From the NCBI GenBank assembly GCA_016214655.1, contig JACROC010000002.1, forward strand, positions 67,801 to 131,800: 64,000 nucleotides of DNA. The letters run 5' to 3'. The notes below the pieces were generated by a model. It saw only the letters and a list, made by a program, of their open reading frames with translations, ran no database searches and was not told the DNA's origin. Positions 34,163-58,957 of the stretch are shown here, one piece after another (the stretch's first letter is position 1; every line of letters begins with the position of its first letter). The translations under genes and the position numbers were made by a program. The stretch is from Candidatus Harrisonbacteria bacterium (GTDB taxonomy: Bacteria > Patescibacteriota > Minisyncoccia > UBA6257 > 02-FULL-45-10c).

Positions 34163-34441
34163 CTACTTAGATTTCCGAACTACCACAAAATAGCCCATAT
34201 TATGTCCATAACTGCCATTACCATTGCCAGTCATAGCTGATACCTCCATCATGGGAAAATTTTTTAGAAAAGTGCTTAATGCATTAGCGAAATTTGCCTC
34301 GATACACGGAAAATAATAAACTCCGTTCCCATAATCCAATGGAGTGCATCCACTTTTCTTGATATTGTTCGGATCTTTTGCCGCATCACAAGCCGCAAGC
34401 AAAGCAACCGCCAACAACGGAAATACAGCTCGTCTGACCAT
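34163..34441 (-). CDS. Small lipoprotein
   Basis: Lipobox 'LLAVALLAAC'. RBS aaggaggggaaaATG at 34441. Confidence 0.55.
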   Translation of the reverse strand: MVRRAVFPLLAVALLAACDAAKDPNNIKKSGCTPLDYGNGVYYFPCIEANFANALSTFLKNFPMMEVSAMTGNGNGSYGHNMGYFVVVRKSK

Positions 34442-34560
34442 TTTCCCCTCCTTTTCAACGAACGTTACGACCATAAACATAATAACATAAAAATTAAGGT
34501 GATGTCAAATTAAAAAGCGGCCTCACAAAGCGGGGCTTTATTTTTAAAATAATCTTTCAG

Positions 34561-34816
34561 CTCCGGGAGCAGGGATCGAACCTGCGACCGTCGCGTTACA
34601 CTTACCCTCTAATTACTTAAAGGCGTGGACTATATCTTTACCTCATTAAGGTATCTCGGTATCTAGTCTCTACGGAGCCCTCGATTTTACGAGGTTCCCA
34701 CGGTATTATCCGCCAGCTGACGGACTTCACCGTTATCCCGAGAAGTTTCAACCTAAGTCGCCTTAGGAAGCTGCGTCATTTCACAGCGCGCCGCTCTACC
34801 GCTGAGCTATCCCGGA
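34561..34816 (-). tRNA. tRNA-Asn(GUU) interrupted by a group I intron
   Basis: Exon 1 (34783..34816) gives acceptor UCCGGGA, U8, D-arm GCUC-AGCGGUA-GAGC and anticodon-stem 5' strand GCGCG + CUGU. The intron is 34599..34782. Exon 2 (34561..34598) gives UAA + CGCGA, the T-arm GCAGG-UUCGAUC-CCUGC, the 3' acceptor strand UCCCGGA and discriminator G. The spliced anticodon loop CUGUUAA, with U1-A72 and G73, matches bacterial tRNA-Asn. Confidence 0.7.
34599..34782 (-). ncRNA. Group I intron (184 nt) in the tRNA-Asn anticodon loop
   Basis: P1 hairpin GCUGU|G..GCAGC has a U.G pair at the 5' splice site. R-like element GUAGAGACUAGA and S-like element AAGAUAUAGUCC are present. The 3' terminal residue is G. 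Confidence 0.65.
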
Positions 34817-54103: not shown

Positions 54104-54694
54104 CTACAATTTTAGTAATTGCCACCATGGCAACACGCTTAGCCACTTACTTATTATTATAGTCAAAAACGCGGTCGGCAGCCAAAGATAATAAAAAGAA
54201 AGACGCTCGCTTTTAACAAATGATAAATGACTACTGACAAATGACAAAATAAGAGCCGAAATCAAAAGCACAAATAAATAAACAAGCCAGGCAGGATGGC
54301 CAACTGAAAAAATCGCGGTCGCCAGCAAATATGGTTCTATCAGTTCAAAAAACCTTTCTCCAAATCTTTTATTTAAATATCTGGTTGCCGCTAAAAAAAT
54401 AATTCCTACAATCAATGACAATAAATATTGGTTAAAAAATCTGGTTCTGATAAAAAACACAAAATAATCTAAATTCCGGTATGGAGGAAGAAAGAATTTT
54501 CCGATTTCATTCCCTTGCCACAACTTATATTGAGCCCAAGAATAATAGCCCGCTAATCCGAAAATTATGATTGCAGCCGAAATAAAGATTGTTAAACCGA
54601 AAAACCCGCTCCTATAAAAATCAGAGCGGGTTTTTCTGGATATCAGCTGAACAGAAAAAATTATAACAAGAAACCCAAGAATAATTATGTCCAT
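54104..54694 (-). CDS. Hypothetical polytopic membrane protein
   Basis: 5-6 TM helices. No prepilin-peptidase motifs were seen. Confidence 0.5.
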   Translation of the reverse strand: MDIIILGFLVIIFSVQLISRKTRSDFYRSGFFGLTIFISAAIIIFGLAGYYSWAQYKLWQGNEIGKFFLPPYRNLDYFVFFIRTRFFNQYLLSLIVGIIFLAATRYLNKRFGERFFELIEPYLLATAIFSVGHPAWLVYLFVLLISALILSFVSSHLSFVKSERLSFYYLWLPTAFLTIIISKWLSVLPWWQLLKL

Positions 54695-56589: not shown

Positions 56590-58555
<1,966 letters not shown>

Positions 58556-58957
58556 TAAATTTGATTGCAGGAAACCCTCGAACGAGTTTCTCGCAACCAA
58601 ATTCTGTATTGGGACAACTAGAAAATTTTCTTTTTTAATCTTGGACTCGCTCATCCCGCAACACGGGACAAACGATTTTGCTCAATTAACTAATTGATAA
58701 TTTTACCTTTTTGTTTTATCAAAGCGGCGAGTACTATTTTCCGTGAAAATAATACACCCGCCTTGTTCCTCGGTTTCCCAAGAAGCAAGGCGGATGTACT
58801 TTAAAAATCCAAATATTTATTTTTTAATTAAGCACCAATAATCATATTAGTAATATACATTATATTCGCAAACACAAATAGCGTCAATACCCCTCCAAAA
58901 CTTTCTTCCCCGCGCAGTTTAAATGCGCGGAGACTGAAAATTCTCGAGAATTTTCGT

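Follow-up and report, generated by a model that had tools for sequence, protein, structure and literature searches.

Introduction

The tRNA-Ile(CAU) gene of Azoarcus sp. BH72 harbours a group I intron of subgroup IC3 that is about 205 nt long. The catalogue of known tRNA group I intron types was expanded to 21 by Williams (bioRxiv 10.1101/2020.01.27.920355), and it includes a type designated Asn.4Ug which, according to a later paper (PMC13011429), the tool sometimes mis-scored as Thr.2Ug. That paper, by Nakagawa, Amikura, Omae and Suzuki, appeared as a preprint in July 2025 (10.1101/2025.07.03.662931) and in mSystems in January 2026 (PMC13011429), and it describes tRNA-Asn(GUU) introns between positions 35 and 36 in complete genomes of Patescibacteria (15 introns in 95 genomes), with an overall range of intron lengths of 184–894 nt. 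Two introns from this phylum, one of 234 nt in tRNA-Asn and one of 196 nt in tRNA-Asp, were shown in vitro to be excised precisely at 35/36 in a GTP-dependent manner (PMC13011429, Fig. 4), and mutation of ωG to C blocked exon ligation (PMC13011429). The same authors report that tRNAscan-SE, ARAGORN and tFind either miss such genes or miscall them as Thr(UGU) interrupted at 33/34 (PMC13011429), and in their account the Thr result is an artefact that arises when ARAGORN and tFind shift the intron by two bases (PMC13011429, Table 1, Fig. 3).

The class is therefore known from the literature, which includes evidence of its splicing in related Patescibacteria, and the locus analysed here, which lies in a 64-kb window (the whole stretch of DNA that was studied), is an ordinary further example of it. 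We consider it very likely that this locus is a Patescibacteria tRNA-Asn(GUU) gene split between U35 and U36 by a 184-nt, ORF-less and probably self-splicing group I intron. With the Asn.4Ug introns of Patescibacteria it shares the host tRNA, the insertion site, the design of P1 (exon end CUGU, guide GCAG), the uridine at –1 and the terminal guanosine, as well as the failure of tRNA finders and the miscall as tRNA-Thr(UGU) at 33/34.

Results

The split tRNA-Asn(GUU) locus runs from 34816 to 34561 on the minus strand, as do all of its parts given below, and spans 256 nt, of which 34 belong to the 5′ exon, 184 to the intron and 38 to the 3′ exon. The 5′ exon (34783–34816) reads, in order, acceptor strand UCCGGGA, U8 and A9, D arm GCUC-AGCGGUA-GAGC, G26, anticodon-stem strand GCGCG and C32-U33-G34-U35, an assignment that rests on the sequence, on the ARAGORN call for the spliced product and on 72/72 identity to two uninterrupted genes (L120 and L121). 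U35, at 34783, is the –1 uridine of the 5′ splice site. The intron (34599–34782) was delimited from RF00028, a family HMM, covariation, the minimum-free-energy (MFE) fold and conserved columns; it begins with GAAAUGACGCAGC, ends with GGGUAAGUG and contains no ORF within its 184 nt. The 3′ exon (34561–34598), assigned from the sequence and from uninterrupted homologues, consists of U36 A37 A38, the stem strand CGCGA, the variable loop CGGUC, the T arm GCAGG-UUCGAUC-CCUGC, the acceptor strand UCCCGGA and the discriminator G73; it does not encode CCA. Joining the exons in silico yields a 72-nt canonical cloverleaf that ARAGORN calls as tRNA-Asn(GUU), with the insertion between U35 and U36 (CUGU/...G/UAA). 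The anticodon stem contains a G27·A43 mismatch, which is also found in all six uninterrupted tRNA-Asn genes with the same arm. The ligated anticodon loop CUGUUAA, together with U1-A72 and G73, had been taken in an earlier note on this DNA as the signature of tRNA-Asn, and uninterrupted genes that are 72/72 identical bear this out.

A scan across species-representative bacterial genomes, one per species, with the two core motifs R and S revealed at least 119 loci, nearly all of them in Patescibacteria MAGs. After correction of the ARAGORN boundaries, 89 of the loci listed are 35/36 introns behind an invariant CUGU; among the matches listed, at least 41 interrupt tRNA-Asp (196–274 nt), at least 27 tRNA-Asn (185–265 nt), at least 20 tRNA-Tyr (184–228 nt) and at least one tRNA-His (218 nt). 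The closest relatives of the window intron among the matches listed share about 73–83% identity with it over the aligned parts. [quoted passage not shown] The expectation that 184 nt would be among the smallest sizes held in that the intron ties the reported minimum (PMC13011429), but it is not unique, because its relatives include one intron of 184 nt in tRNA-Tyr and one of 185 nt in tRNA-Asn.

Alignment of the window intron with the 89 relatives (90 sequences) supports a P1–P9 model in which 87% of the cells are paired, compared with 37–44% after the partners are slid by 1–3 columns. Compensatory changes occur in 31 of the 53 pairs; P2, P3, P6a, P8 and P9 covary strongly, and P4 and P7 are invariant, the invariance of P7 being in part a product of the search pattern, which spanned it. 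A leave-one-out HMM built from the 89 relatives matched the window intron with 144 bits (E = 6.5e-44) over model positions 3–224 of 226, and the family HMM gave no match in the 64-kb window besides the intron locus. Where family columns are at least 90% conserved, the intron agrees at 85 of 88. It departs at the other three, through alternative GNRA loops in two cases and a compensated pair in P3 in the third, and on comparison with its relatives it looks intact rather than decayed. Homology to the 35/36 family extends over the full length, and the insertion site is that of the family, with a GUN anticodon and CUGU followed by NAN. The family may possibly spread among the tRNAs with GUN anticodons, those for Asn, Asp, Tyr and His, because one guide, GCAG, recognises their common C32-U33-G34-U35.

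The RF00028 alignment placed the P3–P9 core correctly but wrongly assigned P1 and P2 to the 5′ exon and the flanking sequence upstream; the structure was therefore drawn by hand, giving the order P1-P2-P3-P4-P5-P6-P7-P3′-P8-P7′-P9-ωG. P1 (34770–34787) is formed by exon nucleotides G31-C32-U33-G34-U35 and intron G1, which pair with C8-G9-C10-A11-G12-C13 of the intron (GCUGU/G with guide CGCAGC) across the loop L1 AAAUGA, and it places a U35·G9 wobble at the 5′ splice site. The pairs C32:G, U33:A, G34:C and U35·G are invariant in 90/90 sequences (window and relatives), and the +1:8 pair covaries (AU 55, GC 14, CG 13). P2 (34752–34767) is a CCUAAG-GCGA-CUUAGG hairpin with a GNRA loop, compensatory changes in 6/6 pairs and 95% of cells paired. 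The 5′ strand of P3, UCUCGG (34738–34743), pairs with CCGAGA (34654–34659), with 100% of cells paired and covariation in 4/6 pairs, and this 3′ strand closes the P3/P7 pseudoknot. The stretch 34701–34732 holds the invariant P4 (CGGU/ACCG), J4/5 GAA, the P5 hairpin and J5/4 AAU. P5 itself (GUCCGUC-AGCU-GGCGGAU; 7 bp with a 4-nt loop) is a short helical variant from which the CUAAG/UAUG receptor-like motif is absent, whereas most family members have it.

The P6/P6a hairpin (34674–34699; GG..CCUCG-UAAAAU-CGAGG..CC) has two invariant basal G-C pairs, and 4/5 of its distal pairs covary. The 5′ strand of P7 (34664–34670; G, a bulged A, then GACUA) lies in the GUAGAGACUAGA element and is invariant in the family; its partner UAGUCC (34627–34632), placed by the pairing model, is part of the AAGAUAUAGUCC element, which comprises J8/7 and P7′. 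By analogy, the guanosine-binding site would be the G-C pair beside the bulged A of P7. P8 (34640–34652; ACCU-UAAUG-AGGU) covaries in 3/4 pairs and belongs to the shortest of the family's P8 types, and P9 (34606–34623; CCUUUAA-GUAA-UUAGAGG, with a GNRA loop) covaries in 6/7. L9 is GUAA where the family usually has GAAA, and the remaining family members with GUAA likewise have a receptor-less P5; as judged from these sequences, the combination of P5 and L9 looks like a coordinated variant and not like decay. The last intron nucleotide, seen directly in the sequence (...GUAAGUG/UAA), is ωG at 34599, and GUG or AUG forms the 3′ end of 27/27 family tRNA-Asn introns among the matches listed. Inspection by eye gave no pairing of the 3′ exon that would be convincing as P10. 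An unconstrained MFE fold of a 202-nt segment (z = –3.96) recovered P1–P6, P8 and P9 but not the pseudoknotted P7.

Structural hallmarks of a group I intron are found: P1 with its U·G pair, the core helices P3–P8 including the P4–P6 stack and the P3/P7 pseudoknot, the P7 bulge and ωG. Each of the motifs that had been picked out by eye in the earlier note, namely a GCUGU/GCAGC P1 with U·G, GUAGAGACUAGA, AAGAUAUAGUCC and a terminal G, is present, and its central claim of a tRNA-Asn(GUU) split at 35/36 by a compact 184-nt group I intron agrees with the sequence, RF00028, the HMM and covariation alike.

In default mode, ARAGORN found no tRNA in the 64-kb window, and an Rfam scan of the same window at E ≤ 0.1 returned no tRNA match. 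The warning that intron-blind scans would miss this gene therefore stands. When introns were allowed (ARAGORN -i), the locus was called as tRNA-Thr(tgt) i(33,184). A search with RF00028, suggested earlier as a check, was positive by E-value (9.5e-11 for a local 601-nt segment and 1.1e-8 for the 64-kb window) but reached 46.6 bits, below the gathering score of 50. A default Rfam scan consequently leaves the intron unreported, and the E-value mode was used to recover the match. Published surveys applied laxer cut-offs, of at least 18–20 bits (Williams 2020) and of E < 1e-4 in a genome-wide survey (PMC13011429).

A scan of metagenomes for the predicted ligated 31-mer gave matches in six contigs, and in each of them the 31-mer lies within an uninterrupted tRNA-Asn(GUU). 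In two of them (L120 and L121) the tRNA is 72/72 identical to the ligated exons, and a further contig (L124) shows the gene order FtsA-FtsZ-RNR-tRNA-Asn as in the window, without the intron. The existence of these uninterrupted counterparts indicates that the intron is an insertion into a resident tRNA-Asn gene and is present in some relatives and absent from others. The RNR that adjoins the tRNA in the window shares 80% amino-acid identity with the RNR of a Ca. Harrisonbacteria MAG, which itself lies beside an intron-containing tRNA-Asn. This MAG gives the best agreement in synteny and identity, and the host is probably an organism of Parcubacteria/Paceibacteria type. A promoter scan of the minus strand found no sigma-70-like promoter upstream of the tRNA, and the sole downstream hairpin (34519–34537) is weak, terminator-like and biased towards the plus strand; the tRNA may share a transcript with the RNR gene upstream of it.

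The window also contains a 16S rRNA gene with an insertion of ~480 nt, its junctions at 57203/56719, at the decoding-centre site. This insertion is highly structured (z = –5.97) and gives an above-threshold match to the group II intron D1-D4 motif; no match to a D5/D6 model, no reverse-transcriptase ORF and no GUGYG start were found in it. It is a possible group II intron and may merit a separate look, because PMC13011429 reports none in Patescibacteria.

Discussion

The nearest published relatives of this intron are the tRNA-Asn intron of GCA_030583765.1 (205 nt) and the tRNA-Tyr intron of GCA_016699995.1 (192 nt), which score 160 and 143 bits, respectively, on the family HMM and share the whole core. 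In the supplementary tables of PMC13011429 the exact intron sequence does not occur, and only core motifs are common to it and three other introns. At 184 nt the intron is shorter than the tRNA-Asn introns in the accessible part of Table S3 and equals the overall minimum of 184 nt reported by that study (PMC13011429), and it lacks the HNH homing endonuclease ORF that is present in four Asn introns of that study. The two introns that were validated in vitro also align over the full length of the family HMM, albeit weakly (23.7 and 39.7 bits), and are, judging from these alignments, homologous to this intron but of more distant subtypes.

The likeness to the Azoarcus intron that had been noticed earlier holds for the R element and for the compact architecture; outside the R element there is little similarity. 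Like the window intron, the Azoarcus intron has a compact P1–P9 layout that carries no peripheral extensions, GNRA loops capping P2 and P9 and the same GUAGAGACUAGA, but it occupies another tRNA and another site and is not known to carry the AAGAUAUAGUCC form of the S element. When the Azoarcus sequence was compared with the family HMM, the only aligned segment was the 12-mer GUAGAGACUAGA, and the likeness is a resemblance in R element and architecture, not membership. As measured by eye, only 23 nt (P3′ and P8) separate the 5′ strand of P7 from J8/7, which leaves no room for P7.1/P7.2, the peripheral elements of IA. The intron looks IC3-like in this respect, whereas the published assignments of 35/36 introns are mostly IA: in PMC13011429, 25 of the 28 introns at 35/36 are placed in IA and no Patescibacteria tRNA intron in subgroup IC. 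The self-splicing tRNA-Leu(UAA) group I introns of cyanobacteria and plastids are similar in being located in the anticodon loop, usually ORF-less and provided with a U·G-defined 5′ splice site, but they reside in another tRNA at another site and are larger (for example 249 nt at 34/35 in Nostoc PCC 7120); the Nostoc intron gave no match to the family HMM at E ≤ 10.

The identity of the tRNA requires some care, because the 5′ exon ends in GU and the intron in GUG, so that two different 184-nt excisions fit the rule of a –1 U and a terminal G: excision at 35/36 gives Asn(GUU), and excision at 33/34 gives Thr(UGU). A tRNA-Thr(UGU) with the same 184-nt intron two bases upstream is what intron-aware ARAGORN calls, and the shifted boundaries CU/GUGAAA...GUAAG/UGUAA are formally acceptable. 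We nevertheless regard this alternative as very improbable. With these boundaries the nucleotide before the cleavage site would be U33, which pairs with A and not with G in P1, while the wobble at U35 is invariant in 90/90 sequences. The tRNA body, with U1-A72 and G73, is that of the family tRNA-Asn genes (27/27 among the matches listed), whereas uninterrupted tRNA-Thr(UGU) genes in the listed loci have G1 and a discriminator U (21/21). U1-A72 and G73 are identity elements for AsnRS. The Asn junction, moreover, occurs in nature as an uninterrupted gene that is identical at 72/72 positions, and when spliced homologues were sequenced, the intron had been excised at 35/36 (PMC13011429). The locus is accordingly read here as tRNA-Asn(GUU).

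Whether the tRNA-Asn(GUU) gene is functional is a separate matter. The intron could be an inactivated copy, one that does not splice or that needs an absent protein cofactor, with the cell being served by an uninterrupted tRNA-Asn gene outside the window. The RF00028 score below the gathering threshold, a P5 without the usual receptor-like motif and the lack of a clear P10 could be taken in this sense, and the search covered 64 kb of the genome. Against this, all helices are intact, 85/88 conserved positions are kept and the three differences are structurally neutral; the relatives with an L9 GUAA share the receptor-less P5, which makes a coordinated variant look likelier than decay. [quoted passage not shown] We thus consider an inactive copy unlikely, although less so than the Thr assignment, and this locus is probably the cell's only tRNA-Asn gene. 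The reading that tRNA-like halves and group-I-like motifs lie side by side by chance, for which the sub-threshold Rfam score and nothing further could be cited, has a negligible probability and is refuted by the RF00028 match to the window (E = 1.1e-8), the HMM match (E = 6.5e-44), the covariation of the helices and the identical uninterrupted tRNA.

A splicing mechanism is proposed for the intact tRNA-Asn intron in which the locus would be transcribed as a 256-nt precursor. The guide CGCAGC would pair with G31-C32-U33-G34-U35 and intron G1 to form P1 and set the U35·G wobble at the 5′ splice site, and the P3–P9 core, with its P3/P7 pseudoknot and the GNRA loops L2 and L9, would fold round P1. 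An external guanosine bound in P7 would then attack after U35, whereupon G184 would occupy the same site and the freed 3′-OH of U35 would attack after G184, joining CUGU to UAA in the anticodon loop CUGUUAA. CCA would be added after splicing, because it is not encoded. We infer by analogy that this copy would self-splice, since two introns that share the 35/36 site, homologous though more distant, splice in vitro. There is perhaps an even chance that the intron is an active ribozyme, tying the shortest natural group I introns, in which L9 GUAA docks on a plain P5 in place of GAAA on CUAAG/UAUG. If so, it would be useful as a minimal scaffold, being shorter than the intron of Azoarcus, and of modest interest to ribozyme engineers.

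Conclusion

The locus adds one instance, equal in length to the shortest on record, to a class of introns that has already been validated, and it opens no new question. If splicing is demonstrated, it would be a compact candidate for ribozyme work. In practice, default tRNA finders miss the tRNA-Asn gene of this genome or miscall it as tRNA-Thr(UGU), both of which were seen here, and a tRNA missed or miscalled in this way distorts estimates of tRNA complement and of genome completeness for Patescibacteria.

The compact introns inserted between positions 35 and 36 occur in all four tRNAs with a GUN anticodon, as revealed by the loci from our core-motif scan of species-representative genomes (L003-L119) and by an alignment (A1) of the window's intron with 89 related 35/36 introns. 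Among the matches listed, the hosts are tRNA-Asp (at least 41), tRNA-Asn (at least 27), tRNA-Tyr (at least 20) and tRNA-His (at least one, L045). A second scan locus, L026, is probably also a tRNA-His host. Every family case listed has an invariant C32-U33-G34-U35 before the intron, and the guide is GCAG. tRNA-His is absent from the hosts in Table 1 of the survey of Patescibacteria tRNA introns by Nakagawa et al. (PMC13011429).

Within A1, the type of the L9 tetraloop (columns 358-361) tracks the type of P5 (columns 108-166), in counts uncorrected for kinship. A receptor-like P5, CUAAG...UAUG, is present in 61 of the 81 members with GAAA in L9, and in 0 of the 7 members with GUAA, one of which is N-masked in P5. 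The window's intron is one of the seven GUAA members, which lack the CUAAG...UAUG P5. This association fits a tertiary contact between L9 and P5 in which both partners switch type together.

At least nine of the core-motif loci (L023, L068, L071 and L090, and L007, L029, L051, L056 and L098) come from MAGs labelled as Bdellovibrio/Bdellovibrionales or as 'uncultured Gammaproteobacteria'. ARAGORN assigns the host tRNAs of L023 and L090 as Phe(GAA) and Leu(UAA), with different splice sites. These labels could reflect either mis-binned or mis-labelled Patescibacteria or a genuine occurrence beyond the phylum.

The 16S rRNA gene of the window (56598-58556, minus strand) is also interrupted, by an insertion of approximately 480 nt (56720-57202, minus strand). 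Good alignment to the Rfam model stops at ...CCUGUACUCAC, near 57203 (E. coli position ~1397), and the true continuation, CGCCCGUCAC...AAGUCGUAACAAGG, picks up again near 56719. The insertion is strongly structured (MFE z -5.97), and a group II intron was considered, given a match to RF01998 (group-II-D1D4-1) at 56950-56874 that scores 37.9 bits, above the gathering score of 35. Three hairpins come after this match: a short one, a D5-like one that has a 2-nt bulge on its 3' side, and a D6-like one. Other observations speak against this assignment: RF00029 gives no match, the insertion has no RT ORF and does not start with GUGYG, and no group II introns were reported among 95 complete Patescibacteria genomes (PMC13011429). 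The 3' end of the gene (~56598-56610, minus strand) reads ...GCUGUGCGUGGAUCAAUUAAAC; the usual anti-Shine-Dalgarno CCUCC was not found behind GGAUCA, nor within the following ~200 nt.

A probably spurious match to the Rfam Thr_leader model at 54521-54640 (plus strand) is sub-threshold (37.4 bits versus a gathering score of 55) and lies within, and antisense to, a 196-aa ORF on the minus strand (54104-54694). Just downstream of tRNA-Asn, a hairpin and T-run (34519-34537) has a terminator score mainly on the plus strand, and a strong sigma-70-like promoter, TTGACA-18-TATTAT (34508-34479, minus strand), faces a small ORF (34163-34480). A scan for a promoter-like site upstream of tRNA-Asn itself found none.

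Uninterrupted tRNA-Asn(GUU) genes are found in other organisms, among them those of three metagenome contigs. The genes in L120 (2128-2199) and L121 (2056-2127) match the window's ligated exons at 72/72 positions, and that in L124 (5941-6012) at only 62/72, within a gene order, FtsA-FtsZ-RNR-tRNA-Asn, that is syntenic with the window. Fairly close relatives therefore differ in whether they carry the tRNA-Asn intron.
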